From contig JBJEXX010000064.1 in NCBI GenBank assembly GCA_051886215.1, forward strand, positions 1 through 44,450: a DNA stretch of 44,450 nt. The letters run 5' to 3'. Positions 13,373 to 44,450 of this stretch are shown here, piece by piece. Source of the stretch: Bacilli bacterium (lineage in GTDB: Bacteria; Bacillota_I; Bacilli_A; RF39; UBA660). The notes below the pieces were generated by a model. The model had not been told where the DNA came from and made no database searches. It worked only from the letters and a program-made list of their open reading frames with translations. The position numbers and the translations under genes were made by a program. Each line of letters starts with the position of its first letter. The first letter of the stretch is position 1.

Positions 13373-13585
13373 TACATATTTCCTCCTTTCTATATACTTC
13401 TTCACAGGTGTGAGTTTATATTCACTATTGTATGATATCATTATTATAAATAAAAATTTGTCGAAAATAATTTTCTAAACAAAATTTTTTATTTATATTC
13501 AAACTATAGTAACTAACTCTCACACTATTGTGATTTTTGAATAGTGAAAATACTGCTACCACTATTACAAACTTATTATAAAATA

Positions 13586-13594
13586 CCCCCCCCC
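13586..13594. repeat. C9/G9 homopolymer tract
   Basis: Nine consecutive C, read directly from the sequence, in an otherwise extremely AT-rich intergenic region. Confidence 0.95.
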
Positions 13595-13596
13595 GT

Positions 13597-13635
13597 TGTC
13601 AACAATTAGTTAACTTTTTGTTAACTGATTTGACA
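13597..13635 (-). terminator. imperfect 16-18 bp palindrome: putative terminator of the HerA-like gene or an operator site
   Basis: TGTCAACAATTAGTTAAC (13597-13614), loop TTTTT, GTTAACTGATTTGACA (13620-13635). It lies 26 nt downstream of the stop at 13661 on the minus strand. Confidence 0.4.
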
Positions 13636-13660
13636 TAAAGGCAAAGAAATTATCATTTTT

Positions 13661-22191: not shown

Positions 22192-22821
22192 CTATTGTTT
22201 TGTTTTCTTTTCATTTATTTTAACTAATCCTTTATAAAATTCTATTTCTAATAGTCCTGTACCTATTAGATTATTTTTTATTCCTTCATTAAAATTATCT
22301 TTATCAATTAAAGAATAATCTAATTCATATTCTCCAAAGTTTATATTCTTATTATTATAATCTACAAATTCTCTTAAGAACTCTCTTATTGTACGACCAT
22401 TGCCTTCTCTAAAAGGATGAATACAAACTAATTCTTTATAAAAATTAGCTAGAAATGAACTATAGGCTCTATCACTTGTTATATTCGTTGCTTGTTGTTT
22501 ATATCTATTTAAAGTTTCATCTAACTTATTATCAATTTCCTCATAAGGAATAAAGTAATCCCACTGCCACACTTTCTTTATATTAACATCTCGAAAATTA
22601 CCAGCAAAATCATAAATATCTTCAAATAGATATTTGTGCAAATCTTTTAGATATTGTTTATCAAAAGTACTAGGTATCTTATCAGGATTCATATATAAAT
22701 AAACCAATTTATTTTCTAAAATTGCTTCTTCTTTATTTCTCAATTCTACTGCATCCCTTATATTAAATTTATTTTTTAAAACATTTGTACCTTCATAAAT
22801 ATATTTATCAAAATTATCCAT
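22192..22821 (-). CDS. Fic-family protein (Fido domain, putative AMPylase)
   Basis: 209 aa. Canonical Fic motif HPFREGNGRTIR, matching HxFx(D/E)GNGRxxR. The N-terminus YEGTNVLKNKFNIRD is typical of short Fic toxins. Confidence 0.9.
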   Translation of the reverse strand: MDNFDKYIYEGTNVLKNKFNIRDAVELRNKEEAILENKLVYLYMNPDKIPSTFDKQYLKDLHKYLFEDIYDFAGNFRDVNIKKVWQWDYFIPYEEIDNKLDETLNRYKQQATNITSDRAYSSFLANFYKELVCIHPFREGNGRTIREFLREFVDYNNKNINFGEYELDYSLIDKDNFNEGIKNNLIGTGLLEIEFYKGLVKINEKKTKQ

Positions 22822-23059: not shown

Positions 23060-23617
23060 TTAAAAAATTGCACAATTTTCTATATTACACGGTGATATTT
23101 TTTCACCTTTATAATATATTCCTTCTTTATCATAAGTGCACCAATTAAGTAGAAGAAAAAACATCGCAGTAGAATGTGTTACTATAGCTACTTTTTTATT
23201 TTTAAAATTATTAAGAACTTGATCTAAACTTTCTAGCATACGAGTTCTAACTTCTTTTTGTGATTCTCCATTACCTATTTTATAATCTATTTCTCTTAAT
23301 TGTTTATCATAAAAATCTATAGGTATATCATCCCAGGATGGAACTCCAAATTTTCTTTCACCAAAAGTTTCGATTATATTAATATCAATCCCATTATTAT
23401 TAGCTATATATTTTGCTGTTGATATTCCTCTTATATAATTGGAAGAAATTAAAATATCTATTTGTTTAAGTTCATCTATATTTAATTTTTTGCTTGCTAA
23501 ATTTTCTCCTTCAATTGATAATATTTGCTTTTCATTTTGGATTTGCAAAGAATCACTATTAAGAATATTATTTACTTTTTGTGATATGGAATGTCTAATA
23601 AAATAAATTGTAGTCAT
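23060..23617 (-). CDS. histidine phosphatase superfamily protein (RHS variant of the RHG motif)
   Basis: 185 aa. IYFIRHSIS at the N-terminus and VAIVTHSTAM (second His). Confidence 0.75.
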   Translation of the reverse strand: MTTIYFIRHSISQKVNNILNSDSLQIQNEKQILSIEGENLASKKLNIDELKQIDILISSNYIRGISTAKYIANNNGIDINIIETFGERKFGVPSWDDIPIDFYDKQLREIDYKIGNGESQKEVRTRMLESLDQVLNNFKNKKVAIVTHSTAMFFLLLNWCTYDKEGIYYKGEKISPCNIENCAIF

Positions 23618-24391: not shown

Positions 24392-25090
24392 TTAATAATT
24401 GGCTTTTTTTCTTAATTCTGCAACGTATATTGTTTGTGTAGTTGAACTATCTTTAGTACAAGTTATAAGAGTTAAAGTAGTTTTTTCTTTATTTCTATAT
24501 ACATTTACTGTTCCAACTTTTGGTTGTTCATAAATATTAACTATTTGATAAGTATATTTTACATTTTGATAATAAACATATACGACATCACCATTAACTA
24601 ATTGATATAGTTGATTAAAAAAAGAATTCCAAGCAGTTCCTGAATGACCTGCGATTATAAAATTACCTTTACTTACATTAGGATAATCAGATCCTGCCAT
24701 AACAGCAATATTTTTATCTACATCATTGTCTGTAGAATTCATATCTAAAAATCCTTTTTTTAATCCAACTTTGGGTACTTCTAATGTTCCAATATAATTA
24801 TAATTTGAATCATAAGGTGTTGGATCTATTCCTTCTTCAGTAACTGTTTCTACCTCTTCCTGCTTTTTCTTCTCTTCTTCTTGTTTTTTCTTTTCTTCCT
24901 CTTCTTTTCTTTTTTCTTCTTCAGCTTTGGTTTCGTTATATGCAAAAATTTTATTATTCATATATGTATAAGCATAATCTATTTTTTTATCTACATAATT
25001 AAAAACAAGCAAAGAGATTCCGAGTATTATACCCAAAATCCCAATTGTTGTTTTTGTTTTACTATTTATTTGTTTTTTCTTTTTTAACAT
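24392..25090 (-). CDS. sortase (class uncertain, A/D-like) with Glu/Lys-rich linker
   Basis: 232 aa with an N-terminal TM. FIIAGHSG (His), LTLITC (Cys) and a downstream Arg (VAELRKK). It overlaps the adhesin gene by 29 nt. Confidence 0.85.
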   Translation of the reverse strand: MLKKKKQINSKTKTTIGILGIILGISLLVFNYVDKKIDYAYTYMNNKIFAYNETKAEEEKRKEEEEKKKQEEEKKKQEEVETVTEEGIDPTPYDSNYNYIGTLEVPKVGLKKGFLDMNSTDNDVDKNIAVMAGSDYPNVSKGNFIIAGHSGTAWNSFFNQLYQLVNGDVVYVYYQNVKYTYQIVNIYEQPKVGTVNVYRNKEKTTLTLITCTKDSSTTQTIYVAELRKKANY

Positions 25091-26420
25091 TTTTTATAAC
25101 AAATCCTGTTCCAACTATGATTATAATTGCTCCTACAATATACATTATCGTTGAGGCAGTTGAGGCAGTATCAGGAACAACTACAGTTTCAGTTACTACA
25201 GCTTCTGGAACTTCCTCTTCTTCTTGTTCTTCAGGTGCGTTATACATAGTTACTGATATAACAGTTCCATCTGCTTTTACTTCAAATTCTACAACTTCTG
25301 TACTTAATGTATATCCATCTGGTGCAGCCGTTTCAGTCAATGTATATTTCCCAGCCGGTAAATTTTCTATGTAATAGTCTTCATCAGTAGTTGTCCAACT
25401 AGCAACAATATTTCCATTAGCATCTTTTACCTCAAGTTTAGCTCCTGGCAAATTTTGTGCAGTGGCCATATCAATCTTTGATATCTTAACTTTAGTTGTT
25501 GTATATATTAATTGTCCTGCATTGCTTACTTTGATTTCTTCTGGAAAGTTTGCAACTAAACTTTGTAATGAACTTGAAGCTGTATATTTATAAGCTTTAT
25601 TTACTGTACCACTAGCATTAACTGTAATTGTAAATTTATTAGTTAATTCTTTATATGAAGCTGCTGGTACTTTTACAACAAATTTATCTCCTGCTGAAAA
25701 TGAATTTTTTTGATTTCCTTTAGTATCTGTAACTATAGTTCCTGATGGAGCCGAATTTAGTGTTACTGTATAATTTCCAGTAATACCACTAGCAGTTACA
25801 CCTATTTGAGTTGATTCATAATATTTTTTATCACTACTTAAAGTCATATTTTTATCAGTAATGTTTAACTTAATACTTGGTTTTGCATAACTTGCTTTTT
25901 TAGCACCCTCTTTTAATGAATATGCCATTTTATAAACATTAGTATTTTTATATGACCCATTTTTGAAATTTTGTAGTGGATCATAACTGTTTCCATTACT
26001 ATTTTTATATTCACTTCTTGGAGTTATCTTGTTTTCTATTCCATTCAAATAGTCAACATACCACCACATTGCAACTTGTGTTGCACCATATCTTTCAGCT
26101 GCACTCATGTTACTATTATTGTCGTATGGATATCCATTATTTATAATGTATGCATATCCAGCATTTAATTCAGAACCTGATTTTTTAATAGTAGTTCCTG
26201 TTGATGGTGATGATTTCTTATCCAAATCTATACAATACACATAAACAGTTTTATTATTATATGTAACTGATTTTTTATAAAAATGCATAGATCCTATTGG
26301 ATTGATTTCTGTTTTACCAGTTATTTTTAAACTACTTGGAGCTTCAGCTTTAACACCTAAAGCAAAAATTCCTACTACTGCAATAATTAAAGTTAATATT
26401 GATTTTATTATTTTTTTCAT
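25062..26420 (-). CDS. sortase-anchored adhesin with TQXA thioester-type domain and CnaB/SpaA-like domain, VPDTA sorting signal
   Basis: 452 aa with a signal peptide. It has a single Cys in VYVYCIDLD and a TQVAMWWY motif. The CnaB-like block is GAKLEVKDANGN...LPAGKYTLTETAAPDGYTL. The C-terminus has VPDTA (25164-25178), a TM and a KKEKTNK tail. Confidence 0.8.
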   Translation of the reverse strand: MKKIIKSILTLIIAVVGIFALGVKAEAPSSLKITGKTEINPIGSMHFYKKSVTYNNKTVYVYCIDLDKKSSPSTGTTIKKSGSELNAGYAYIINNGYPYDNNSNMSAAERYGATQVAMWWYVDYLNGIENKITPRSEYKNSNGNSYDPLQNFKNGSYKNTNVYKMAYSLKEGAKKASYAKPSIKLNITDKNMTLSSDKKYYESTQIGVTASGITGNYTVTLNSAPSGTIVTDTKGNQKNSFSAGDKFVVKVPAASYKELTNKFTITVNASGTVNKAYKYTASSSLQSLVANFPEEIKVSNAGQLIYTTTKVKISKIDMATAQNLPGAKLEVKDANGNIVASWTTTDEDYYIENLPAGKYTLTETAAPDGYTLSTEVVEFEVKADGTVISVTMYNAPEEQEEEEVPEAVVTETVVVPDTASTASTIMYIVGAIIIIVGTGFVIKNVKKEKTNK

Positions 26421-26625: not shown

Positions 26626-27217
26626 TTGAAAAAGAAATTATTAACAATAATATTTTGCTTAATCATATTATTGTTAGCATGTGCAGTTTTATTTAATAAT
26701 GTTAAAAAAGATACAAATGAATCTTTGAAAACAGTAAAAGTTTCTGAAGTAACTCACAGTATTTTTTATACTCCAATGTATGTAGCTGATGCTTTAGGAT
26801 ATTTTGAAGATAATGGAATCGATGTTGAAATAATTACAAGTAGTGGAGCGGACGCAGTTGCAGCTGCAGTACTAAGTGGTGATGTTGATATTGGATTCTG
26901 TGGAAGTGAACAAACAATTTACATCTATAACCAAGGTGAAAAAGATTATTTAATTAATTTTGCTGGGCTTACTAAAAGAGATGGTAGTTTCTTAGTGGGA
27001 AGAACAGAAGATAATAATTTTGATCTAAATAGTTTAAAAGGTAAAACTATTATAGGTGGAAGAAAAGGCGGTATGCCTTCAATGACACTAGCTTACACTT
27101 TGTATGAAAATGGTATTGATCCATATAAAGATGTAACTATTGATACTAGCATCGCTTTTTCATCTATGTCAGGAGCATTTATTAGTGGTACTGGTGATTA
27201 TGTAACACTATTTGAAC
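26626..27217 (+). pseudogene. 5' fragment of a split NMT1/SsuA-like ABC substrate-binding lipoprotein gene
   Basis: TTG start after AAAGGAGG. Lipobox LLLAC. The reading frame continues exactly at 34024. The ORF-track extension to 27234 is element-derived sequence. Confidence 0.85.
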
Positions 27218-27229
27218 TTAGTGTAAGAG
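27202..27229. other. attL of integrative element 1
   Basis: GTAACACTATTTGAAC|TTAGTGTAAGAG, consisting of a host half-site and an element half-site around a shared GAAC. Confidence 0.75.
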
Positions 27230-27265
27230 AATGAAGTCACCAAGTAAAAAATTATAAGTCTATAA

Positions 27266-28975
27266 TCATAGACAAAAATAACAATTCACTTGGTAACACA
27301 CCTTATATCTTTTAGTTCCCCTAGTATCGTATCCTCTTTTAAATTCATAACTACTTCTTAAAATTGGTTGTAGTTTTTTTGTTTCATCATTCTCTTTGTA
27401 TGATAAAAATATATTTAATTCCATATCATTTTTATCATTACATATTTTATACACTACAATATGATCTAATAATAAACTTATTATTTTATTTGTTGTAGAT
27501 TTTTCAGTTGTTTTTATTTTGAGAAATTCATTAAGTTCTTTAGTTTTATCTATTGTTACTTTTATTTGTTTTTTATTTTTATTTAACTTAATTAATTCAT
27601 TATCAATAATCTTAATCTTTTTATTATAAAAATCATTTCTTTCCGTAAATTCTTTATTTGATATACTACCTTCTAAACTAAGTTCTAATAACTTCTCTTT
27701 TTTTTGAAATAAATCATTTTTTTTCTTTATTATAGTATTGATTTCATCATCTATGTCAGTATCAAATTCTAAATATTTATAATAGTTCATAAGAATATTA
27801 ATTACTTCATTAGAATCTATTTGTAATTTAGAAATTAAATCCTTAAAAATTACATATAATTCTGATTCTCTAATATTAGGTGAATCACAAAAACTTTTGC
27901 CTTTTTTTAAATATTCAGAACAAACCCAAGTAATATCTTTTTTATTTTTTCTAAACTCTCTTCTGTGAAAAACTGTATTATGTTCAGCACAATATATTTT
28001 AGCACTATATAAATATCTATTTTTATATATACTTTTATCTTTTTTTCTTTTACTAAAAGCTTTTTTTCTAGCTATTAATCTAGTATTAGCTCTTTCCCAT
28101 AAATCTTCATCAATGATTGGTGGTATTCTTGTTTTATCTTCGTAGATAACCCAATCATTTTTTTCAAAGTATTTTATCTTTTTAGTCATATAATCTACTA
28201 TTTCAGATTTTTTAGCACAATAATATCCTTTATATTTAGGATTTTCAATCATTCTAGAAATAGTAGATATACACCATTTTTTACCTAATCCAGTTTTTAA
28301 ATCTTCATTATTTAAAATCTTAACTATTTTAGAAAGCGATAATTTTTCTATACCATAATATTCATAAATTCTTCTAACTACTTTTGCTTCTTCCTCTATG
28401 ATATTTAATACTCCTGTATCCTTATTTTTTTTATAACCATAAAGTAAATCATTACCTAGTATTTCACCACGTTCTATAGCTCTATTCATACCAAATTTAA
28501 CACGTTCTGATAATCTTCTAATTTCATCTTGAGCCATAGAAGCCATTATGGTTAATCTAAGTTCTGAATCAGGCATAGCAGTATTAATATTATCATTGAC
28601 AAATAATACAGCTACTCCGAAAGATAAAAGTTCTCTAGTATATTTAATACTATCAAGAGTATTTCTTGAAAATCTAGAAATTTCTTTGGTGACTATTAAA
28701 TCAAATTTACCATTTCTAGCATCTTCAATCATTTTCATAAAGTTATCTCTTTTAACATCACTTGTACCAGTTATTCCATCATCTACATAACCAGGTATAT
28801 AAGTCCAATTTGGATTTCCTTTTATATATTGTTCAAAATGTTCTATTTGATTTTGAAGAGATTTTTTTTGCTCACTGGTGTCTGTGGATACTCTTGCATA
28901 ATCTGTTACTCTAAGTTTTATATTAGTAAGAGGTACTCCCATATTTAATTGTTTTCGAACAGTATATAAATCCAA
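27266..28975 (-). CDS. large serine recombinase
   Basis: 569 aa. Resolvase catalytic region YARVSTD...KKSLQNQ, a recombinase domain, a Cys-rich zinc-ribbon region (CAEHNTVFHRR...WVCSEYLKKGKSFC) and a coiled-coil tail. TTG start after AAAGGAGAA. Confidence 0.92.
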   Translation of the reverse strand: MDLYTVRKQLNMGVPLTNIKLRVTDYARVSTDTSEQKKSLQNQIEHFEQYIKGNPNWTYIPGYVDDGITGTSDVKRDNFMKMIEDARNGKFDLIVTKEISRFSRNTLDSIKYTRELLSFGVAVLFVNDNINTAMPDSELRLTIMASMAQDEIRRLSERVKFGMNRAIERGEILGNDLLYGYKKNKDTGVLNIIEEEAKVVRRIYEYYGIEKLSLSKIVKILNNEDLKTGLGKKWCISTISRMIENPKYKGYYCAKKSEIVDYMTKKIKYFEKNDWVIYEDKTRIPPIIDEDLWERANTRLIARKKAFSKRKKDKSIYKNRYLYSAKIYCAEHNTVFHRREFRKNKKDITWVCSEYLKKGKSFCDSPNIRESELYVIFKDLISKLQIDSNEVINILMNYYKYLEFDTDIDDEINTIIKKKNDLFQKKEKLLELSLEGSISNKEFTERNDFYNKKIKIIDNELIKLNKNKKQIKVTIDKTKELNEFLKIKTTEKSTTNKIISLLLDHIVVYKICNDKNDMELNIFLSYKENDETKKLQPILRSSYEFKRGYDTRGTKRYKVCYQVNCYFCL

Positions 28976-28978
28976 TTT

Positions 28979-29119
28979 TTATTCTCCTTTTAATTCTTTT
29001 AATATATTTTCTTCTGTATATTTAAACATTCTATAGGAAATTTTATTTTCATTTAATAATTCTTTATTTATAAAAAGCGCTAGTTCTAACATAAGTTTTT
29101 TCTTATCAATATATTCCAT
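28979..29119 (-). CDS. 46-codon ORF immediately upstream of the recombinase (possible directionality factor or regulator)
   Basis: Hand translation gives MEYIDKKKLMLELALFINKELLNENKISYRMFKYTEENILKELKGE. ATG after AGGGGA. Its stop lies within the recombinase RBS region. Confidence 0.35.
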   Translation of the reverse strand: MEYIDKKKLMLELALFINKELLNENKISYRMFKYTEENILKELKGE

Positions 29120-29189
29120 AAATTCCCCTATATAAATTTATGAAATAAATATTAAGATATACTTAAATTAATTTATATATCTTTTTTAG

Positions 29190-29222
29190 TAAAAAAAATA
29201 GAACTTATAATTAAGATTCTAT
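29190..29222 (-). terminator. rho-independent (bidirectional-looking) terminator ending the cargo operon
   Basis: ATAGAACTTA (29198-29207) / TAAGATTCTAT (29212-29222) hairpin flanked by an A8 run and a T-run. Confidence 0.65.
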
Positions 29223-29348
29223 TTTTTACAATATTTTTCATTTAAAGATTTTTCTATTTTTTAGCAATATTTACAAATATAATTTTAATTAATTGTCATC
29301 ATCTGTTTTTAATCTAGCCTTACTCGTTAATTTCATAATAATCTTCTT

Positions 29349-29873
29349 CTATAATTCAAATTCCAACATTTCACAATTTTTAATACCAATGTTAAAAAGT
29401 TTGCCATTACCTACTCCATTAAAATAAACCTTAAAGGCTCTACCAACACCCTTATGTGTAACTACTAAAACATTCTCATACTTTTGTTGTTTCAATTCTT
29501 CAATAAAATTATTAACTCTATTTAAAAAACTTTTAATATCTTCACAATCTTCATATTTATATTCATTATAATAATCCCAATATCCTTCACGATTAATATC
29601 GGTTAAGGTCTTACCAATTAATGTGCCAAAATATCGTTCTTTTAATCTATCATCAAAAATAATACTCTTATTTTTAACATTTATTATTTCTGCAGTGTTT
29701 TTAGCTCTTATAAAAGGTGATGAAATGATAATATCATAATTTATATTTTTAATTTTTTCTCTTAACCTTTTAGCTTGTTCAATTCCTATATCTGCAAGAT
29801 TTGTTTCAGGTGCATTATGGACTTTTAATAAATTTGCTACTGTTTTACCATGTCTAATTACATATATTTTCAT
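29349..29873 (-). CDS. histidine phosphatase superfamily protein
   Basis: 174 aa. IYVIRHGKT (RHG) and VVTHKGVGRA (second His). Confidence 0.85.
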   Translation of the reverse strand: MKIYVIRHGKTVANLLKVHNAPETNLADIGIEQAKRLREKIKNINYDIIISSPFIRAKNTAEIINVKNKSIIFDDRLKERYFGTLIGKTLTDINREGYWDYYNEYKYEDCEDIKSFLNRVNNFIEELKQQKYENVLVVTHKGVGRAFKVYFNGVGNGKLFNIGIKNCEMLEFEL

Positions 29874-29889
29874 AAATAGTCTCCTGAAT

Positions 29890-30396
29890 TTAATTTATTT
29901 GTAATTCTTTTTCTACTTCGATAGGAAGTAATGCATTAATTCCTATCTTTTTATATTGTTCAATATTATTTATCAATTCATCTATAAACAATATTTCATT
30001 ATAATTACAATTATTTATTTTACTTATTATTTCTATTGCATTAATTTTTAATTTTTGACTCGATGAAATTATAATTTCAATATCTTCATTATAATGTTTT
30101 TTTATAAAAGACTTTTTAGCTTGTAAATTAAATGAAAACTTCATACCTGAAACACAATACATTTTTATATTTCTATTTTTTAAAATCTTTATTAGTTTCT
30201 TTAATATATCTGATTCATAACATATTTCTATTTCATCATAAAAAATATCAGGATTTAAATATGCATTTAGTAAATAATTCATATAAACTTCTTTATTATC
30301 TTTCCTTTTTTGTAAATATTCCTTATCTTTGTGTATAGCTAATGTATCATCAAAATCAAATATTACTACTTTTATATTTTCCAACTCATTAATCAT
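29890..30396 (-). CDS. small HAD-superfamily hydrolase-like protein
   Basis: 168 aa. Motif I VVIFDFDDTLA (DxDxT), a motif II-like YCVSG, and a motif IV-like LFIDE. Confidence 0.65.
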   Translation of the reverse strand: MINELENIKVVIFDFDDTLAIHKDKEYLQKRKDNKEVYMNYLLNAYLNPDIFYDEIEICYESDILKKLIKILKNRNIKMYCVSGMKFSFNLQAKKSFIKKHYNEDIEIIISSSQKLKINAIEIISKINNCNYNEILFIDELINNIEQYKKIGINALLPIEVEKELQIN

Positions 30397-30397
30397 A

Positions 30398-31846
30398 CTA
30401 TTCTCCCATTTTTATAAAAAAATCTTGATATATTTTATTTCTATATAAATCATTAACAAATATAACTTGATGTCTATCTGTTGTTTGCTCATATAATCCA
30501 TTATCTAAAACAATCGGACAACTAATCATTTCAGATTTAAACCAATCAGCATTTATTTCATAGGCAATTGCACTTAAATCCCATAGTGTTTTACTTGATC
30601 CTATTTCATCAGCTGGTTCTTTCATAAATGACTTTTTACATTTAATAAATTCTTCACATAAATATTTATTTAACTTTGTATTTTCACTTAAATAATGTTT
30701 TAACTCATATATTGTGGTAGATAAATTTGCTGCGACATTTCTGCAAGGTATAACTACTAATTCTACTTTAGAATCAAATACTTTTTGAACTGCTTTAATG
30801 TCTTGTCTAAAGTTGAATTCACTATTATCCTTAGTTAAGAAACTATTTCCTCCTAACCAAACAACTTTTATTTTATTTACTATTTCTGGAGATTTTTCTA
30901 TTGCTAAAGCTACATTAGTTATTGCACCAATTGCTAGTATTGTAGTTTTATTATTCTTATTAGCTATTTCTATTATTTTTTCTACAGCTTCATTAGTTTC
31001 CTTACTATCATTAAAATATTTTGTAGCACCTTTATAAACTTTTTCTTTATATTCTGTTTTATTTAGCATATCTAATATATTTAATGTTGTTTCATAACTC
31101 TTTTCAGTACCTTCTTCAATAGTTTCTGTATTTGCATAACCACTTTTTAAAAAAGGGGCTATAGTTATTGCTTCTAAATCAAAAACATCTAAAGATTTCA
31201 TCAAATAAGTTAATGCAAATTGATCATCAACTTCATTATACATATCTGTATCAAGTATTACTTTTTTCTTATCCATATTTGTCACCACCTCATATAATTC
31301 TTTCCAATTATTAACTACTTTTAATCCTTCTATATTTTTTAAATTATAATTTGTTGCCATTAAATAACAATTAATATTATTCTCTTGTAATTGTCTACAA
31401 TTAGTTCTAACATCATCAAACATTATATCTATATTATTTTCTTTACATTCTTTAGTTTTATTTGTATCTTTGGATAATATTAATTTAGTATAATTTATAT
31501 TGTTTTCTTCTAACCATTTTTTTGTTACTTGATATGGATTGGTGTAATCTGGATAAGCTCTATGGGAAATAAGATATAGACTATGTCCTTCTTGCAATAA
31601 TTTATCCATATAATATTTAGAATCTTTTCTTGGTTCAAATTGTTTAGCAAAGCTTTCCATATTTTTATGATAAAACTCTTCTATTTCCTCTTTAGACCAA
31701 TCAAAAAAATCTTTTATCCAATTACCATTTGGGTTTACTATTCCTCTATTTCTTTTATTTTTATCTTCCTTTAGAAATTCAGCTAATAATTTTTTATCAA
31801 AATCCGTTATAACATTATCTATATCTAATCCAATTCTCATATACAC
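30398..31846 (-). CDS. fusion protein: N-terminal 5'(3')-deoxyribonucleotidase-like HAD domain plus C-terminal inosine/uridine-preferring nucleoside hydrolase domain
   Basis: 482 aa. N-terminal IGLDIDNVITDF (DxDxV/T nucleotidase motif). From about residue 193, KKVILDTDMYNEVDDQFALTYL matches the DxDxxxDD nucleoside hydrolase fingerprint. Confidence 0.7.
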   Translation of the reverse strand: MYMRIGLDIDNVITDFDKKLLAEFLKEDKNKRNRGIVNPNGNWIKDFFDWSKEEIEEFYHKNMESFAKQFEPRKDSKYYMDKLLQEGHSLYLISHRAYPDYTNPYQVTKKWLEENNINYTKLILSKDTNKTKECKENNIDIMFDDVRTNCRQLQENNINCYLMATNYNLKNIEGLKVVNNWKELYEVVTNMDKKKVILDTDMYNEVDDQFALTYLMKSLDVFDLEAITIAPFLKSGYANTETIEEGTEKSYETTLNILDMLNKTEYKEKVYKGATKYFNDSKETNEAVEKIIEIANKNNKTTILAIGAITNVALAIEKSPEIVNKIKVVWLGGNSFLTKDNSEFNFRQDIKAVQKVFDSKVELVVIPCRNVAANLSTTIYELKHYLSENTKLNKYLCEEFIKCKKSFMKEPADEIGSSKTLWDLSAIAYEINADWFKSEMISCPIVLDNGLYEQTTDRHQVIFVNDLYRNKIYQDFFIKMGE

Positions 31847-31863
31847 CTCTATATTATATAAAT

Positions 31864-33918
31864 TTATCTTGTAATATTATATATAATTCCATATAAATCG
31901 TATTCTTTTTCACCTATTAAAGATTTTTTTTCAAATTGTATTTTACCACCTGTTTTTTTATAAAAATTTAAAGCTCGTATATTATCTTTAAGACACCATA
32001 AAATCATTTTCTTTTTATTTTGAGATTTAAGATAATTTATTGTATGCTTTAATAAAAATGTTCCAATATTTTTACCTTTATATTCTGGTTTTATATATAA
32101 ACTAACTAGTTCGCAGTCATATTCATTATTATTTATATTATCATTAAAAGTTGAATATCCTACTACTTCTTCAGTCTTATTATCTACTGCGACTAATACA
32201 GAATTTTTATATTGTTCAAAACTATCTATATACTTTTTAGTCTGTTCTTCATAATTTAGACTTTCTAAATAATCTAAAGAAATTATTTCTTTATAGGCAT
32301 CTTTCCATCCATCTACTTTTATATGAGCCATCTGTTCTTGATCTTTTAATTGATTGAAGCGAACAGTATAATTATTCTCAACTAAAAGTTTTTGAATTGA
32401 ATCGTTCATTAAATTCATACAATATATTAATTTATCTGTTTCAAAGGCAAAAGTAACTCTTCCAACTAATTCATCATGATATGGCCAACTTATAGATTGT
32501 CCAATAAGAAAACGTAAACGATTGGTTAAATAGAAAAATTCTAACAAATCTCTTTCTGTTTCAATTTTTTTACCATTATACATCATTCCTTTTAAAGCAG
32601 TAAAATCTAATATAGCGAAAAAACCTGCCTCTGGTTCTAAATTATCTGGAAATTTTACATATGGCAATCCTTTTAATAATTCATTTCTTTTTTTCTCATC
32701 CGGAATATTTTTTTCTATTTCCTGTTTTACTTTAATATACATTTCTTGATTTTGAATACTATCTATACCTTCTACTAAAGCTTTTAAAATATTATATCTA
32801 AAGACATAGTTTTCTCTTATGGGATTAAAATATTCTTCATATTCAATCTGTCTGTTTCTAGATGCATTAAACGCTCCAATTAAAGCTTTTCCAACTATAT
32901 CTGGTGAAGAATCCATTTCTTGAAAAATTCTATTAACAACTTCACGAATTATAATTTCATCTGCGACTATGAAACCAGCTCGTAAACTAGCTAAACCATA
33001 ACTTTTTGATAATCCAAATAAAGTAATAGTATTTTTAAACATTCCAGGAATTGTAGCGATTGGTTTAGCTATATTATTTTTATCAAAAGTAATATCTCTA
33101 TAAACCATATCATCAATTACAAAAACTCCTCTTTCTAAACATACCTGACCTATTTGTCGCAATAGTTCTTCTTCATTTTTACCCATGACTTTACCAGTAG
33201 GATTACTGGGATTAATATTCAAAAACGCAACAACTCTTGGAACATAGCCTTTTCTTCTATTGTATATTCTTTGCAAAGAATAATTAATCTCATCAATTGT
33301 ATTGGCTAATTTAGTAGGATTAATTAAAAAGTTATCTTCTTTTTCCAAAGGAATTACTTCTACTTCAGCACCTGCTCTTTCAGCACGAATAGTAAAAAGT
33401 CCATAATTTGGACCAGGTATTAAAATTACGTCTCCTGGTTTTGAGATAATATTTATTAAAATATTAAAAATAATAGAAGTAGATGGTAAAAAAGTCAAAT
33501 TATGAACAGATAATCCTTTTTCATCTATATCCTCATAATCATATGGCTCTGTATTTATAAAACCTTCTTGTTCTATATAATCCAAAAGAATTTTTCTAAT
33601 CCTATCATCACCTTCTGTATAAGGGTATTTATACATTTCATCATTTTCTAAAGATGTTATCATTTCTCTAATTGATCCCGGAAAAGGTTTACATTTCATA
33701 GAATTTCCTCCACCTAAATCAATATCTGGTCTTGTAGCAATTTCTTCATCGCGAACTTCAAAACCATAAAAATTTATCGCATCTGCGATTTCTTGAACAT
33801 TAGGATTAAACTCTTCCCTATCTAATCTTTTACCTATTGCAGGCAAGCCAAATCTTCTTTCTTTTAAATCAGGATTTTCTCTTAATAACCTATCAATTGC
33901 CGTAGACTTTTTTAACAT
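31864..33918 (-). CDS. fusion protein: class I/II PLP aminotransferase plus C-terminal GNAT acetyltransferase
   Basis: 684 aa. Aminotransferase blocks ILIPGPNYGLF, NINPSNPTGKVM, VIDDMVYRD and LFGLSKSYGLASLRAGF (PLP Lys). The C-terminal GNAT motif A is LYIKPEYKGKNIGTFLL. Confidence 0.75.
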   Translation of the reverse strand: MLKKSTAIDRLLRENPDLKERRFGLPAIGKRLDREEFNPNVQEIADAINFYGFEVRDEEIATRPDIDLGGGNSMKCKPFPGSIREMITSLENDEMYKYPYTEGDDRIRKILLDYIEQEGFINTEPYDYEDIDEKGLSVHNLTFLPSTSIIFNILINIISKPGDVILIPGPNYGLFTIRAERAGAEVEVIPLEKEDNFLINPTKLANTIDEINYSLQRIYNRRKGYVPRVVAFLNINPSNPTGKVMGKNEEELLRQIGQVCLERGVFVIDDMVYRDITFDKNNIAKPIATIPGMFKNTITLFGLSKSYGLASLRAGFIVADEIIIREVVNRIFQEMDSSPDIVGKALIGAFNASRNRQIEYEEYFNPIRENYVFRYNILKALVEGIDSIQNQEMYIKVKQEIEKNIPDEKKRNELLKGLPYVKFPDNLEPEAGFFAILDFTALKGMMYNGKKIETERDLLEFFYLTNRLRFLIGQSISWPYHDELVGRVTFAFETDKLIYCMNLMNDSIQKLLVENNYTVRFNQLKDQEQMAHIKVDGWKDAYKEIISLDYLESLNYEEQTKKYIDSFEQYKNSVLVAVDNKTEEVVGYSTFNDNINNNEYDCELVSLYIKPEYKGKNIGTFLLKHTINYLKSQNKKKMILWCLKDNIRALNFYKKTGGKIQFEKKSLIGEKEYDLYGIIYNITR

Positions 33919-34007
33919 ATCACACCTCTAATATATCTTTATTATATCATATATAGTCTGTTTTTGATAAAAATATATCTACAATAATATTTTACTGACT
34001 TTGTTTT

Positions 34008-34035
34008 GTTACACTAAGAGAACCTAGTGCTTTAC
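34008..34035. other. attR of integrative element 1
   Basis: GTTACACTAAGAGAAC|CTAGTGCTTTAC. The element half-site mirrors TTAGTGTAA at the left end. Confidence 0.75.
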
Positions 34036-34433
34036 AATTGGAAAAACAAGGTTTTGGTAACGTCGTTGCAAGTATAGGTAAATTAGGTGGAGAGGTTCCT
34101 TATACTACTTTTAATGCTAGAAAAAGTTTTATAGAAAATAATCCTGAAACTATTGAATCTTTCACTAATGCAATTCAAGAAGGCATTGATTATACATTTT
34201 CTCATAGTGAAGAAGAATTAGCGGATATCATAATAGATTATTTTACTGATACTTCTAAAAAAGATTTAATAGAAGTTATAAAAAGATATAAAGATAATGA
34301 TTCTTGGTATAAAACAACATATATTACAGAAGATGGTTGGAATAGAATTCAAAATATAATGGAATATAATAAAGTTTTAGATTCTAGGGTAGATTACAAA
34401 ATATTAGTAGATAATACTTATTCTAATGAATAA
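34024..34433 (+). pseudogene. 3' fragment of the split NMT1/SsuA-like substrate-binding protein gene
   Basis: The frame is continuous with 26626-27217 (…TLFE-P-SALQLEKQGFGNVV…). It overlaps the ATPase start by 8 nt, as expected in an operon. Confidence 0.85.
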
Positions 34434-34840
34434 AATACTAAGTATTAAAAATCTTAAGAAAATATATCATACTAAAAATGATGAAACATTAGCTGTTGAT
34501 AATTTTTCTTTTGATTTAAATGATGGTGATTTTGTCGCTATTGTTGGCCCTAGTGGATGTGGTAAATCAACAATACTATCAATACTTTGTGGTTTAGAAA
34601 ATAAATCAGATGGAACAATTGAAAAAGATAAAAATATTAAATTTGGTTATATGCTTCAGGAAGATTGCTTATTTCCATGGAAAAATATATTAGATAATTG
34701 TATATTAGGACTAGAAATACAAAAAAATGTAAATAAAGAAAGCAAAAAATATGTTAATGATTTATTAGATACATATGGACTTAAAGAATTTAAAAAAAGC
34801 TATCCTGAAAACTTATCAGGAGGTATGAGACAAAGAGTTG
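34426..34840 (+). pseudogene. 5' fragment of a split ABC transporter ATP-binding protein gene
   Basis: Walker A GPSGCGKST and ABC signature LSGGMRQRV. The host frame breaks after QRV; the remaining codons to the stop at 34845 are element sequence. Confidence 0.88.
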
Positions 34841-34860
34841 GTTGAATACTATTAAGACAC
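34831..34860. other. attL of integrative element 2
   Basis: Core CAAAGAGTTG (34831-34840) followed by the terminal inverted repeat TTGAATACTATTAAGACAC. Confidence 0.75.
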
Positions 34861-34938
34861 AATTTAAATTATCATTAATATTATTTTTTCGTATATTAAG
34901 TTATTAAATAAATATAATAGTATTGTTAGGTGATGTAA

Positions 34939-36303
34939 ATGAAAAAGAAATTATTTTTTTGTTTTTTAGTAATTATTATTTTAGTGCTAATTATTTTTAC
35001 TACAATATGCTTCTGTAAAAAAGATACTAAAAGTACTAAAAAGTTAGAAGCAACAGTTATGGCAATAGATAGTGATAGTATATCAGTTCAAGATAATAAT
35101 AATATTATTTATACATTTAATAATCAAACAATAAATACCAACATTGGAGATAAAATAGTTATTGAATATACAGGACTATTAAATAAGAATTATAATATAC
35201 AAGATAATAAAATTATTGATTATACTATTGCTACTATAGAAAAAAATGAAAATGGTATACCAAAATCATGGTTAGATAATGGCATATTTAGTCAATATTA
35301 TATTCTTGCTAATGACAAATTACAAGAATTAACATTAGAGGAAAAGATAAGTCAACTTCTTTTAGTTAGATATCCTGATAATGATCCAATAGGAGAATTG
35401 GGAAAATATCAATTTGGTGGTTACTTGTTTTTTGAAAAAGATTTTAAAAATAAAACAAAAAAAGAAGTTCAAAACATGATGGCATCTCTTCAAAAAAGCG
35501 CTAAAATACCTATACTTACTGCTGTTGATGAAGAAGGCGGAAAAGTAGTACGTATTAGTAGTAATACTAACCTTGTTAATGAAAAATTCAAATCTTCTCA
35601 AGAGCTATATGCATTAGGTGGTTTTGAAACAATAAAAAATGATACAATAAATAAAAGTAATTTACTTAATAGTTTGGGAATTAATTTAAACTTAGCACCC
35701 GTTGTTGATGTATCTACTAATCCAAATGATTATATGTATGAAAGAAGTTTTGGCCAAAATACTGAACTAACATCTACTTATGCTAAAACGGTAATTAATG
35801 CTAGTAAAAATTTGGGTGTATCATATACATTAAAACATTTCCCAGGATATGGTAATAACGATGACACTCATAATGGTATATCTGTTGATAATAGAGATTA
35901 TGATGACATCATAAATAATGATTTACCCCCATTTAAGGCCGGAATAGATGTAGGAGCTGAAGCTGTTTTAGTAAGTCACAATATTGTCACAAATATTGAT
36001 AATTCAAATCCAGCCTCTCTTTCTCCAAGTATACATAATTTACTTCGCAATGAATTAAATTTTACAGGAATAATTATAACAGACGATTTAGCTATGGGAG
36101 CAATATCATCTATAAATAATGCAACTGTAAAAGCAATACTTGCTGGCAATGATTTAATTATTACTACAGACTATATAAAAAGTATAAATGAAATAAAAGC
36201 AGCAGTTAACGATGGTACTATTAGTGAAGATTTAATTGATAAATTAGCTTTTAGAGTATTAGCTTGGAAATATTACAAAGGATTAATGTTTATAAATAAA
36301 TAA
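34939..36303 (+). CDS. membrane-anchored glycoside hydrolase family 3 (NagZ-like beta-N-acetylhexosaminidase), element cargo
   Basis: 454 aa with an N-terminal TM. GH3 N-domain motifs AVDEEGGKV, KHFPGYG and IIITDDLAM. Confidence 0.85.
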   Translation: MKKKLFFCFLVIIILVLIIFTTICFCKKDTKSTKKLEATVMAIDSDSISVQDNNNIIYTFNNQTINTNIGDKIVIEYTGLLNKNYNIQDNKIIDYTIATIEKNENGIPKSWLDNGIFSQYYILANDKLQELTLEEKISQLLLVRYPDNDPIGELGKYQFGGYLFFEKDFKNKTKKEVQNMMASLQKSAKIPILTAVDEEGGKVVRISSNTNLVNEKFKSSQELYALGGFETIKNDTINKSNLLNSLGINLNLAPVVDVSTNPNDYMYERSFGQNTELTSTYAKTVINASKNLGVSYTLKHFPGYGNNDDTHNGISVDNRDYDDIINNDLPPFKAGIDVGAEAVLVSHNIVTNIDNSNPASLSPSIHNLLRNELNFTGIIITDDLAMGAISSINNATVKAILAGNDLIITTDYIKSINEIKAAVNDGTISEDLIDKLAFRVLAWKYYKGLMFINK

Positions 36304-36323
36304 GGATCATTGATCCTTTTTTA
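36302..36323 (+). terminator. rho-independent terminator after the GH3 gene
   Basis: AAGGATC-ATT-GATCCTT hairpin followed by TTTTTT. Confidence 0.7.
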
Positions 36324-36513
36324 TTAGTCTTAAATTTAAGAATAATTAATATAATATATTAGTGATAATTATGAAAATTAAGTATAATATTATTTCTATT
36401 TTTAATAATAAATATTCTCAAAATGTATTAAGTAATATTATAAATGAAAAAATATATAGGATTATTTTTTATTTAAACAACAATAAAAATATATTTTAAA
36501 AAGTGAAGGTGAT

Positions 36514-38100
36514 ATTATTAATAAAAAAAACAAAAAACTAAATGTAGGAATCTATTTACGATTATCTGATGAAGATAAACATAAGAATCATATAGACGAT
36601 GATAGTGAATCAATAAAAAATCAAAGAAATTTACTATTAGAAGAAATTAAAAAACATCCTGAATATATTTTAGTAGATGAATATTCAGATGAGGATCTAT
36701 CTGGAGCTGGTACTTATCGTCCAGAATTTGAAAGATTAATAAAAGATTGCAAAAACAAGAAATTAGATATTGTTCTTTGTAAAAGCCAATCAAGATTCTC
36801 TAGAGATATGGAAATTATTGAAAAATACTTACATAATAAATTTTTGGAATGGAATGTTAGATTTATTAGTTTATCAGATAATGCAGATACAGCAAATATT
36901 GGAAATAAAAAATCACGTCAAATCAATGGACTTGTAAACGAATGGTATTTAGAAGATGTTTCAAATAATATTAGAAGTGCTTTTAAAGCTAAAATGAAAA
37001 ATGGTGAATTTATTTCTCCATTTGCACCATTTGGTTATGAAATAAGTAAAATAAATAATAATAAATTAATTGTTGATAAAGAAGCTAGTGAAATAGTAAA
37101 AAAAATATTTCAATTATATATAGAGGGGTTTGGATTCGGAGGGATTGCTAAATATTTAAATGAAAAAAATATTCCTAGTCCATCTCTTTATAAATTTCAA
37201 AAAGGTATAAAACTAAATATTGTAAGCAACCGTTCAAGAAAAGATATTAAATGGTCAAATAACGCTATTAAAAATATACTAAAGAATGAAGTTTATCTAG
37301 GTCATTTAATACAAGGGAAAAGAACTACTATAAGTTATAAAAATCATAAAATTAAAAGAAAAGATAAATCTGAGTGGATAAAATATGAAAATACACATCC
37401 TTCAATAATTGATAAATATACTTTTAACAAAGTGCAGAATATTATGAAACAAAAAATAAGAACGGCTAAAAATAGTTATATAATTCATAACCTTTCTGGT
37501 AAAGTTTTTTGTTTGGAATGCAAAAGTAAAATGCGAAAAAAAAATTCTAGTAAACATAATTATTTAGTATGCTCTAATTATAGTATTAATAAAAAATGTA
37601 CTAACGTAAAATCTATTAGATATGACGAACTAGAAAAAATAATACTTAAGGAAATTAATAAACAAATTGAAAAATTTTATGATGAGAATGCTTTAAAAAT
37701 AAAATTTAATCATAATAAAGAGTTAAATGTTAAACATAATATAAATAATATGTATAAGCAATACAATAATATAAATAATAAAATAATTGAAATTAATAAT
37801 TATATTAAAAATTTATATGAAGATAAAGTAAATGATATTATAACCAATGAGCAATTTTGTTTGTTTTCTTCTCAATATAATAATGATTTAAAAAAATATA
37901 AATCACAAATTAATTTAATAAAAAATAACATTGAGTTATATAAAAATAATAATTATTTAAACTTTAATCATTTTTTTAATAAAGTTGGTTTTAAAGAACT
38001 TAATAGAATTATTGTAGAAGAATTTATAAAAAAGATATATATTGGTCACATTGATTTAGATACTACTCAAAGAGATATTATTATAGAATGGAATTTTTAA
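36514..38100 (+). CDS. large serine recombinase with no canonical start codon upstream of its catalytic domain
   Basis: The frame is open from 36487. The catalytic region VGIYLRLSDEDK (Ser codon 36565-36567) lies upstream of the first ATG (36808, the ORF-track start). GAAGGTGA (36505-36512) precedes ATT codons at 36514 and 36517. Recombinase and Cys-rich domains (CLECKSKMRKK...LVCSNYSINKKC) follow. The exact start is uncertain. Confidence 0.8.
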   Translation: MINKKNKKLNVGIYLRLSDEDKHKNHIDDDSESIKNQRNLLLEEIKKHPEYILVDEYSDEDLSGAGTYRPEFERLIKDCKNKKLDIVLCKSQSRFSRDMEIIEKYLHNKFLEWNVRFISLSDNADTANIGNKKSRQINGLVNEWYLEDVSNNIRSAFKAKMKNGEFISPFAPFGYEISKINNNKLIVDKEASEIVKKIFQLYIEGFGFGGIAKYLNEKNIPSPSLYKFQKGIKLNIVSNRSRKDIKWSNNAIKNILKNEVYLGHLIQGKRTTISYKNHKIKRKDKSEWIKYENTHPSIIDKYTFNKVQNIMKQKIRTAKNSYIIHNLSGKVFCLECKSKMRKKNSSKHNYLVCSNYSINKKCTNVKSIRYDELEKIILKEINKQIEKFYDENALKIKFNHNKELNVKHNINNMYKQYNNINNKIIEINNYIKNLYEDKVNDIITNEQFCLFSSQYNNDLKKYKSQINLIKNNIELYKNNNYLNFNHFFNKVGFKELNRIIVEEFIKKIYIGHIDLDTTQRDIIIEWNF

Positions 38101-38110
38101 CACCATATAA

Positions 38111-38136
38111 GTGTCTTAAAAACATTCAAAGAGTTG
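38111..38136. other. attR of integrative element 2
   Basis: GTGTCTTAAAAACATTCAA (the inverted copy of the left terminus) followed by core CAAAGAGTTG (38127-38136). Confidence 0.75.
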
Positions 38137-38468
38137 CTTTAATCAGGACACTTGCTACAAAACCAGATATTTTACTTTTGGATGAACCTTTTTCAGCTCT
38201 TGATTATACATCAAGATTAGCTATTTCTGATGATATATATAAAATTTTAAAAAAAGAGAAAAAAAGTATAATAATGGTTACTCATGATATTGCTGAAGCA
38301 ATATCCATGTGTGACAAAGTAATTGTTTTATCAGAAAGACCTGCTAAAATAAAGAAGATTTATGATATAAAATTAAGTGACAAATCCAATCCTATTAATA
38401 ATAGAAAAGCTAAAGAATTTTCTTATTACTATGATAAAATATGGAAGGATATAGACTTTCATGTATAG
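38137..38468 (+). pseudogene. 3' fragment of the split ABC transporter ATP-binding protein gene
   Basis: ALIRTLATKPDILLLDEPFSALD (Walker B) and VTHD (H-loop). The frame is continuous with 34426-34840. Confidence 0.88.
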
Positions 38469-44089: not shown

Positions 44090-44196
44090 TCTTGGCAACG
44101 TCCTATCTTCGCTTACACTATTTTCAGCGTTAATGAGCTTAACTTCTGTGTTCGGTATGGGAACAGGTGTACCCTCATCACTATAGTCACCAAGAA
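44090..44196 (-). rRNA. rrf: 5S ribosomal RNA (short, about 106-108 nt)
   Basis: The reverse complement reads UCUUGGUGACUAUAGUGAUGAGGGUACACCUGUUCCCAUACCGAACACAGAAGUUAAGCUC...GAUAGGACGUUGCCAAG. It has the conserved CCCAUACCGAACACAGAAGUUAAGC block and helix I pairing. Ends are accurate to about 2 nt. Confidence 0.9.
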
Positions 44197-44258
44197 AATA
44201 TATGAGAAATAATTCTCTGAAAACTTAGATAATATCGATTCATCAAATTATAAATAAT

Positions 44259-44450
<192 letters not shown>

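Follow-up and report, generated by a model that had tools for sequence, protein, structure and literature searches.

Positions 29349-33918 of the DNA stretch analysed here (44,450 nucleotides (nt), called the window throughout) hold a tightly packed quartet of minus-strand open reading frames (ORFs). They are predicted to encode a fusion of a class I/II pyridoxal phosphate (PLP) aminotransferase with a GNAT acetyltransferase (gene 1), a fusion of an NT5C-type nucleotidase with a nucleoside hydrolase (gene 2, NT5C-NH), a small HAD-superfamily phosphatase (gene 3) and a histidine phosphatase (gene 4). The region is probably the cargo of a 6806-bp integrative element, and its operon a mosaic of two independent pieces rather than a dedicated four-gene system. 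The element splits the gene of an NMT1/THI5-family ABC-transporter substrate-binding protein. It is of a known kind, a serine-recombinase integrative element with metabolic cargo, and the enzymes are uncharacterised members of known superfamilies; little of the finding would surprise a specialist. Its interest lies partly in a likely over-interpretation averted: an operon that looks like a 'system' on a mobile element is, according to the comparative data, a recent splice of unrelated pieces.

Mosaic structure of the cargo operon

The BLASTN comparison divided the element into three blocks with different nearest relatives (Table 1; the loci compared carry L numbers). The order and spacing of genes 2-4 in the window recur in L172-L174, where the gene of an HD-domain protein follows; there, no gene 1 stands before them and no recombinase gene after them. 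When the window was aligned to L172/L173, the similarity ended about 18 nt (six codons) into the HD gene, which begins with MKLTSK here and with MGLTSK in L173. The HD stub left in the window is the scar of joining the phosphohydrolase block to the recombinase module.

The genes that follow NT5C-NH vary among the loci, which represent eight distinct contexts. They are a 174-aa histidine phosphatase and then an HD protein of ~203 aa in L186/L187 and L188-L190; the small HAD phosphatase, the histidine phosphatase and the HD protein in L172-L174; the HD protein only in L003, L005, L007 and L183; and none in L001. These partner sets suggest that the recurrent unit is NT5C-NH, with or without the HAD phosphatase and with or without the histidine phosphatase, plus the HD protein, and that the window copy lost the HD gene. 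DUF5662, which follows NT5C-NH in L014, was considered as a diverged HD partner and rejected, as BLASTP found no similarity to the HD protein and NCBIfam gave no match.

The distribution of gene 1 was examined in a scan of one genome per GTDB species. At least 103 species have the fusion; they are uncultured Bacilli and 'Tenericutes' metagenome-assembled genomes (MAGs). Of their loci, 80 were fetched, each from a different assembly. In 76 of these loci, no homologue of genes 2-4 or of the recombinase occurs within 10 kb, and clustering of the ORFs within 7 kb revealed no partner common to more than 15 of the 80. Gene 1 is of the island type only in the closest relatives (L014, L015 and L017, obtained in the genome scan, and L010-L013, known before it), where the two parts of the same binding-protein gene enclose it along with a recombinase of this family. 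The remaining cargo of these islands varies, with GH77 and DUF5662 genes in one and PfkB, TetR-like and other unrelated genes elsewhere. The island-borne copies are monophyletic and there is one locus per genome; therefore, the island gene 1 looks like the lineage's own orthologue, and not like an extra gene. Gene 1 is a lineage-wide, otherwise stand-alone gene, which in the clade of the window is resident in this island.

A metagenome scan anchored on the recombinase gave 25 loci with a homologue (48-84% identity) beside fragments of the same binding-protein gene, and none of the 25 carries any of the four cargo genes. Their cargo is unrelated; among it are a pilus-sortase cluster, a putative permease, large putative membrane proteins, a two-component-like pair, and an operon, possibly of type VII secretion, that encodes small helical proteins and one protein of 1519 aa. 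The initial annotation of the window had regarded the quartet as a candidate for an undescribed system. This is contradicted by the different nearest relatives of its parts (77% nucleotide identity for gene 1 versus 82-86% for genes 2-4), by the 76 unlinked copies of gene 1, and by the recurrence of the block without gene 1 or a recombinase.

The integrative element and its attachment sites

The window has ~24% G+C and is chromosomal, as it contains ligA, ftsY, the RNase J gene, a pcrA/uvrD-type helicase gene, tsaD/tsaB and the end of an rRNA operon. That the four genes are the cargo of a serine-recombinase element inserted in a gene was correctly recognised at the outset, and is borne out by the split gene, the attachment (att) sites and the domains of the recombinase. 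The left half of attR and the right half of attL give the attP site TTACACTAAG-AGAA-CTTAGTGTAA, which has perfect 10-bp inverted arms and the junction sequence ...TTTTGTTACACTAAGAGAACTTAGTGTAAGAGAATGAAG.... The reconstructed attB site, ACACTATTTGAACCTAGTG (junction sequence GATTATGTAACACTATTTGAACCTAGTGCTTTACAATTGG), restores the reading frame (...VTLFEPSALQLE...; ...GDYVTLFEPSALQLEKQGFG...), and the rejoined binding protein aligns gap-free across the junction to the solved NMT1-family proteins PDB 3qsl and 4esx. In the ~25 related loci, the N-terminal junction, where the contig includes it, is always found after the V/T-L-F-E/D codons, at one and the same codon.

The recombinase contains the Pfam domains Resolvase (111.7 bits), Recombinase (PF07508, 79.1 bits) and Zn_ribbon_recom (PF13408, 33.8 bits), and matches the phrog_95 integrase at 371 bits. 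Its catalytic-serine motif R28-V-S30-T-D is invariant across five recombinase homologues. The element resembles the gene-inserting elements of large serine recombinases (SCC/Ccr, Tn4451/Tn5397-type and phage/skin-type) in its three-domain recombinase, short dyad att sites with a central crossover, site-specific intragenic insertion and variable cargo. However, the recombinase is not a member of the named SCC/Ccr or XisF families, as the NCBIfam scores are 88-112 bits against cut-offs of 375-900. For example, it reached 112 bits for CcrC and 103 bits for CcrB, where the cut-off is 900, and the target is the NMT1 gene instead of rlmH (orfX) used by SCC-type Ccr. The window copy also differs from such elements in having no conjugation, mobilisation or phage genes, and in the conserved 46-aa ORF that precedes the recombinase gene.

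At least 30 related loci keep this 46-aa ORF in front of the recombinase gene, with identities from 76% down to ~32% (TBLASTN), and its conserved position indicates that it belongs to the recombinase module. It had no Pfam or PHROG match, and is a candidate recombination directionality factor or regulator. The earlier description of the quartet as the only cargo has to be amended, since the element also holds this ORF (28979-29119) and the HD stub (29289-29336). The elements constitute a well-defined large-serine-recombinase family with a conserved attB in a transporter gene, a clean palindromic attP and widely varying cargo. They offer a convenient natural set for studying how cargo turns over, and may also supply new att/integrase pairs.

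Table 1. Coordinates of the element, its cargo operon and the blocks defined by nucleotide similarity.
Feature	Position	Strand	Description
Binding-protein N-terminal part	26626-27234	+	Pfam NMT1 64.2 bits, profile 5-145 of 216; stop codon element-derived
Block: end of binding-protein N-terminal part and recombinase gene	27037-28993		Nearest relatives L094-L099 and L112; 85-87% nt identity
attL	27202-27229		Left half GTAACACTATTTGAA (attB), right half CTTAGTGTAAGAG (attP); crossover near GA at 27214-27215
Large serine recombinase	27266-28975	-	569 aa, apparently intact
Conserved 46-aa ORF	28979-29119	-	MEYIDKKKLMLELALFINKELLNENKISYRMFKYTEENILKELKGE; directly upstream of recombinase gene
A/U-rich hairpin with U-run	29186-29227	-	Candidate terminator of cargo operon, from RNA folding
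HD-domain gene stub	29289-29336	-	15 codons: ribosome-binding site and MKLTSK, then unrelated sequence and stop
Block: genes 2-4	29320-31840		Nearest relatives L172-L174; 82-86% nt identity
Gene 4, histidine phosphatase (putative)	29349-29873	-	174 aa; His_Phos_1, RHG motif
Gene 3, small HAD-superfamily phosphatase (predicted)	29890-30396	-	168 aa
Gene 2, NT5C-NH fusion, as listed	30398-31846	-	482 aa
Gene 2 with ATG start (probable)	30398-31840	-	NT5C-type HAD 5'-nucleotidase domain ~1-190, nucleoside hydrolase domain ~195-480
Gene 1, aminotransferase-GNAT fusion	31864-33918	-	684 aa; class I/II PLP aminotransferase ~66-500, C-terminal GNAT ~520-680
Block: gene 1	31886-33920		Nearest relatives L010-L014 only; 77% nt identity
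Promoter-like site	33941-33970	-	TTATCA, 18 nt, TG-TATAAT; 23 nt upstream of gene 1 start
attR	34008-34029		Left half GTTACACTAAGAGAA, right half CCTAGTG
Binding-protein C-terminal part	34020-34433	+	Frame reads EPSALQLEKQGFG...; start by ORF finder TTG 34038; NMT1 profile 179-215

Organisation and expression signals of the operon

The ORF list agreed with the packing and coordinates that had been annotated for the four genes, and with the mechanical gaps of 17, 1 and 16 nt between them. Gene 2 probably begins in fact at the ATG at 31840; a GAGGTG ribosome-binding site precedes this codon and includes the listed GTG start. Gene 2 would then have 480 aa, and the first gap would be 23 nt. Good ribosome-binding sites also precede genes 3 and 4. 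The promoter-like site before gene 1 was the top match of the promoter scan in the region (10 of 12 consensus positions and an extended -10 element). As a promoter it is suggestive only, since promoter-like sites are no more frequent in this AT-rich DNA than in shuffled sequences.

An extended -10 box (ATGTTATAAT) is common upstream of NT5C-NH in other genomes (L003, L007, L172, L186 and L188), shortly before the ribosome-binding site; in L188 it stands upstream of the GNAT gene that precedes NT5C-NH. Only a TATAAT remnant is left in the window, between the stop codon of gene 1 and the ribosome-binding site of gene 2.

The hairpin downstream of gene 4 consists of 15 pairs followed by a U-run, with a folding energy (dG) of -9.7 kcal/mol and z = -2.06; 7 of 200 shuffled sequences folded equally well. 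It is plausible as a weak intrinsic terminator of the cargo operon. The terminator annotated at 29190-29222 thus corresponds to a real hairpin, though a weak and A/U-rich one. The consensus terminator scan had no match at this site because the hairpin has no G-C pairs. The Rfam scan revealed no riboswitch or other RNA element in the region, and its sole matches were the 5S and 23S rRNA genes at the end of the window.

The NT5C-nucleoside hydrolase fusion

Both domains of gene 2 scored well above the Pfam cut-offs (NT5C 49.3 bits versus 24.8; IU_nuc_hydro 98.6 bits versus 34.2), and the AlphaFold model has a pLDDT of 89.1. Foldseek matched the model to RihA, the inosine-uridine nucleoside hydrolase (IU-NH) and other N-ribohydrolases with target TM-scores of ~0.7 (RihA: E = 1e-15, TM 0.73). 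The NT5C domain resembles the HAD phosphatases of the NT5C/5'(3')-deoxyribonucleotidase type in its Pfam score and motifs, including the DIDNV nucleophile motif and the C-terminal DD; D8, D10, D144 and D145 are invariant in the family. It differs from these phosphatases in being the N-terminal domain of a two-domain enzyme.

The hydrolase domain shares the fold and the equivalents of Asn168 and Asp242 with the Ca2+-dependent N-ribohydrolases of the IU/IAG type (RihA/B/C, Crithidia IU-NH, Trypanosoma IAG-NH, yeast Urh1 and the Trichomonas riboside hydrolase), and has an N-terminal Asp cluster that apparently corresponds to theirs. It differs from them in its fusion to the NT5C nucleotidase domain that precedes it. 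The Ca2+ and ribose motif of N-ribohydrolases is DxDxxxDD. The N-terminal motif of the gene 2 hydrolase is DTDMYNEVDD (DTDxxxxxDD), which is two residues longer (five instead of three residues before DD), and all four Asp residues are invariant in 30 homologues. In the profile alignment to the Crithidia IU-NH (1mas), EFNF of gene 2 falls on EFNI (the Asn168 position) and LWD (W422-D423) on VHD (H241-D242). The positions of the Ca2+ and ribose ligands appear to be kept, and Trp replaces the His241 of Crithidia IU-NH. Trp before Asp242 is the state of the IAG type and typical of purine-specific hydrolases.

The NCBIfam equivalog scores of gene 2 were all far below the cut-offs, and its sequence matches in the PDB were distant. 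No description of the fusion was found in a limited literature search, which also gave nothing specific on the gene 1 fusion or on recombinase elements at binding-protein genes. Hundreds of close homologues of the gene 2 fusion are present in metagenomic Bacilli, as is the case for gene 1, so neither fusion is rare; plasmids yielded only distant single-domain matches. Relatives of the hydrolase domain that stand alone, at 33-35% identity, are found on a Klebsiella plasmid, flanked by a PfkB sugar kinase and a nucleoside transporter, and in Mesorhizobium, next to an ABC importer. These surroundings are catabolic or salvage contexts.

Another unusual fusion is encoded in L094 (11938-13023, minus strand), a 361-aa protein with an NT5C-like N-terminal and a GNAT C-terminal domain. 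Its gene adjoins a further serine recombinase (13246-14667), just past the end of the binding-protein N-terminal fragment.

The two smaller phosphatases

The HAD assignment of gene 3 was below the threshold in the Pfam and NCBIfam searches. The AlphaFold model (pLDDT 91.7) matched HAD-superfamily phosphatases or HAD-like-domain proteins in all 50 of the 50 Foldseek PDB matches listed, with probability 1.00, and D14, D16, T18, S83 and D139 are invariant across the family. The predicted structure therefore confirmed gene 3 as a HAD-superfamily phosphatase. Its 427 homologues are mostly stand-alone genes.

Gene 4 matched His_Phos_1 over its full length (119 bits). The best NCBIfam model was the CobC-type alpha-ribazole phosphatase (TIGR03162, 109.3 bits against a cut-off of 162.9), which does not reach the equivalog level, and gene 4 can be assigned only to the His_Phos_1 superfamily. 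It shares the RHG motif with the branch 1 phosphatases of the CobC/PspA type, and its best models are the alpha-ribazole phosphatase and PspA; it differs in being short (174 aa) and typically linked to NT5C-NH and the HD protein. Gene 4 is 51-52% identical over its full length to the histidine phosphatases neighbouring NT5C-NH in L186 and L188, and is an orthologue of the 174-aa gene that follows NT5C-NH in other genomes. Taken over the whole quartet, the four domain calls and both fusion architectures of the initial annotation were upheld, by Pfam and, for gene 3, by the structural matches and invariant motifs.

The aminotransferase-GNAT fusion

Gene 1 reached 92.5 bits for Aminotran_1_2 (cut-off 19.7) and 61.5 bits for Acetyltransf_1 (cut-off 20.7; residues 555-657). 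K305 (in SKS), N239, D270, Y273 and R487 are invariant in 17 homologues, with the residue roles assigned by analogy; the SKS lysine, NPxNPTG, DD-x-Y and C-terminal GR motifs are all invariant. In its score and motifs, the enzyme is similar to the class I aminotransferases (aspartate/prephenate, LL-DAP and kynurenine aminotransferases, and the PatB-type C-S lyases), but it has an N-terminal extension of ~65 aa and the C-terminal GNAT domain. The NCBIfam and PDB sequence matches were all weak, with none at the equivalog level, and the identity to plasmid-encoded aminotransferases is at most 27%. The fusion is confined to one cluster at 50% identity, made up of uncultured Bacilli, beyond which the homologues (35-54% identity) have ~500 aa and no GNAT domain.

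Some NT5C-NH genes elsewhere adjoin GNAT genes. A specific link of these GNATs to gene 1 was considered and rejected, since they show only generic motif similarity to the GNAT domain of gene 1.

The NAD-related context of NT5C-NH

In L186/L187, the block of NT5C-NH and its partners lies between pncA-pncB-nudix-nadE-nadD-pncC and nrtR-nadK. The cluster spans 1143-10223 in L186 (it is also present in L187), and includes a run of NT5C-NH, the 174-aa histidine phosphatase, the HD protein, NrtR and NAD kinase; the junctions of the block to nrtR-nadK are overlapping or 12 nt long. The HD partner has a weak match (NF005519, E ~1e-6) to the HD domain found in NadD-HD fusions. A palindrome of L186, TGTTATTAATATAATGTTAATAACA, and related half-sites upstream of pncA may be an NrtR operator.

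Moreover, N-ribohydrolases of yeast and Trichomonas are among the structural matches of gene 2. These enzymes are described as salvaging nicotinamide as well as nucleobases (PMC11241417, PMC10474468).

Proposed function and alternative explanations

In our reading, the intact large serine recombinase and its 46-aa partner drive the element, which sits at a specific site within the coding sequence of the NMT1-family binding protein, on the chromosome of an uncultured gut Bacilli lineage of ~24% G+C. One piece of the cargo is gene 1, the lineage-wide stand-alone gene that came to reside in the island. The other is a truncated copy of the recurrent operon of NT5C-NH, the optional small HAD phosphatase, the 174-aa histidine phosphatase and the HD protein, cut six codons into the HD gene on joining the recombinase module. 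All four genes would be transcribed from the promoter upstream of gene 1. The NT5C domain would strip the 5'-phosphate from riboside monophosphates, while the HAD and histidine phosphatases probably dephosphorylate with other specificities. The Ca2+-type N-ribohydrolase domain, with Trp for the catalytic His, would then free base and ribose for salvage, and phosphoribosyltransferases would recycle the bases. This logic of base recycling is familiar from purine-auxotrophic parasites. A concrete variant might be the conversion of nicotinamide mononucleotide (NMN) to nicotinamide riboside and then to nicotinamide, which would feed PncA/PncB. The gene 1 enzyme would act separately, on some amino or keto acid. 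The most likely role of genes 2-4 is the predicted conversion of riboside monophosphates to base and ribose for salvage. The initial suggestion that they take nucleotides down to base and sugar fits the recurrent linkage and the catabolic context of the stand-alone hydrolase relatives; the transamination and acetylation by gene 1 in the same pathway could not be retained.

Several observations weigh against the mosaic and salvage reading. The matches to characterised enzymes are all distant, and thus the substrates are inferred only. Gene 1 and NT5C-NH share an island in two forms, i.e. in the window and in L010-L014 with L013, which could hint at a functional link; the NT5C-NH copies of the latter are only 58-59% identical to that of the window. 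At several loci in variable regions, NT5C-NH is accompanied by integrases, a reverse transcriptase or AAA ATPases. The NAD genes occur in one lineage only (L186/L187) and are absent from the seven other contexts. A shared NrtR-type operator was sought in L186 and rejected, as the palindrome TGTTATTAA...TTAATAACA recurs upstream of pncA and not of the NT5C-NH operon. As for mobility, neither an empty attB nor an excised circle was seen, and in the collections the proteins of the window are on one contig only. The recombinase is truncated (308-461 aa) in several relatives, and together with the vertically inherited appearance of the island gene 1 copies this suggests that the island may be largely fixed.

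A single undescribed pathway, in which a phosphorylated nucleoside derivative loses its phosphate and its sugar, and an intermediate undergoes transamination followed by N-acetylation, would agree with the tight packing, the separate ribosome-binding sites and the one upstream promoter-like site. It would also agree with the island shared by gene 1 and NT5C-NH in L010-L014 and L013, with the GNAT genes adjoining NT5C-type genes in L005 and L188, and with the NT5C-GNAT fusion in L094. However, it is very unlikely, because the two parts have different nearest relatives and the truncated gene marks the joint between block and recombinase, because gene 1 has no constant neighbours and stands apart from the other three genes in 76 of 80 species, and because the phosphohydrolase block recurs without it. 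Moreover, the GNATs near NT5C-NH elsewhere are only generically similar to that of gene 1, and in L014, where NT5C-NH is 59% identical to the window copy, another gene stands between NT5C-NH and gene 1. Also very unlikely, and the least probable of the alternatives, is an anti-phage defence or counter-defence module that would act by depleting or rebuilding the pools of nucleotides or NAD, with the recombinase element as its means of spread. The operon is on an integrative element, and some NT5C-NH/HD loci are in variable regions beside integrase, reverse transcriptase, Fic or AAA ATPase genes. NAD metabolism is also a known battleground of phage and host (PMC13464706). Nevertheless, none of the PADLOC protein models matched the five proteins at E <= 0.01, profile scans of the IMG/VR viral contigs found no relatives of either fusion, and no sensor or effector-type component is present. 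Both fusions are widespread and apparently single-copy chromosomal genes, and one NT5C-NH copy is in a housekeeping operon with NrtR and NadK. The defence suggestion of the initial annotation therefore has no positive evidence.

The NT5C-NH/histidine phosphatase block, with or without the HD protein, might be dedicated to the recycling of pyridine nucleotides. NMN or nicotinate mononucleotide (NaMN) would be converted to the riboside and then to nicotinamide or nicotinate, which would feed the Preiss-Handler route through PncA/PncB, and the histidine phosphatase or the HD protein would act on NADP or related dinucleotides. This possibility is rather unlikely, but it draws on the block of L186/L187, which is flanked by NAD genes on both sides and apparently forms one operon with nrtR-nadK, on the weak likeness of the HD partner to the HD domain of NadD-HD fusions, and on the nicotinamide-salvaging N-ribohydrolases of yeast and Trichomonas among the structural matches (PMC11241417, PMC10474468). 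On the other side, the NAD genes are found in one of the eight distinct contexts and no shared NrtR-like operator is present upstream. An active site with Trp for His is also typical of purine-specific hydrolases. Somewhat less likely still is a wider version, in which the block is an undescribed pyridine-nucleotide recycling module of uncultured gut Bacilli, with one polypeptide converting NMN/NaMN to nicotinamide/nicotinate and partners acting on NADP or related dinucleotides, and in which recombinase elements that target one codon of a transporter gene move such modules. The insertion might also be a genetic switch, i.e. a regulated intervening sequence like the skin and SPbeta elements of Bacillus, the excision of which rebuilds the transporter gene. 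In favour of a switch, the reading frame would become whole again after precise excision, many species share the insertion site, the adjoining ATPase gene of this transporter operon is itself split by a second recombinase element (likewise in L010), and one relative carries the sporulation gene SpoIIP. However, many recombinase copies are truncated, which fits decay after insertion better than a maintained switch, and the recombinase of the second element has no catalytic domain, so that excision could not rebuild the ATPase gene. No empty site was observed, and the ATPase gene is intact in L094, so the double split is not universal; a switch is accordingly improbable.

Compared with these alternatives, the mosaic of two independent pieces is the reading that we prefer. 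Two enzyme families that are abundant and uncharacterised in poorly known gut Bacilli come into view, the aminotransferase-GNAT fusion on the one hand and NT5C-NH, accompanied by the histidine phosphatase and the HD protein, on the other. The NT5C-NH family now has a testable substrate hypothesis, namely nucleotide or NAD salvage.

Neighbouring features of the window

A second serine-recombinase element of ~3.2 kb, located within 34426-38468, splits the next gene of the transporter operon, which encodes an ABC ATPase (N-terminal part 34426-34845, C-terminal part 38088-38468). Its cargo is a GH3 glycosidase gene (34939-36303). The recombinase ORF of this element (36808-38100) has no intact catalytic domain; the similarity starts at 36532, where no ORF covers it. 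A comparable second-element arrangement is found in L010/L014, with a NAGPA-domain gene instead, and the ATPase gene of L094 is intact.

The split binding-protein gene is flanked in the window by a cluster of thioester-domain/SpaA pilin and sortase genes (24392-26420, minus strand). In relatives, similar pilus-sortase clusters are serine-recombinase cargo at or within the same gene (L096/L097, 3044-9329; L014, 14073-16611). L014 also has two overlapping N-terminal fragments of the binding protein (query residues 148-200 and 19-187). In the window, the variable stretch that separates the pilin cluster from the pcrA/uvrD-type helicase gene encodes a Fic-domain protein (22192-22821, minus strand) and an unrelated second His_Phos_1 protein of 185 aa (23060-23617, minus strand). 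The window has no tRNA genes, and ends with the 5S rRNA gene and the 3' end of the 23S rRNA gene (44090-44450, minus strand).

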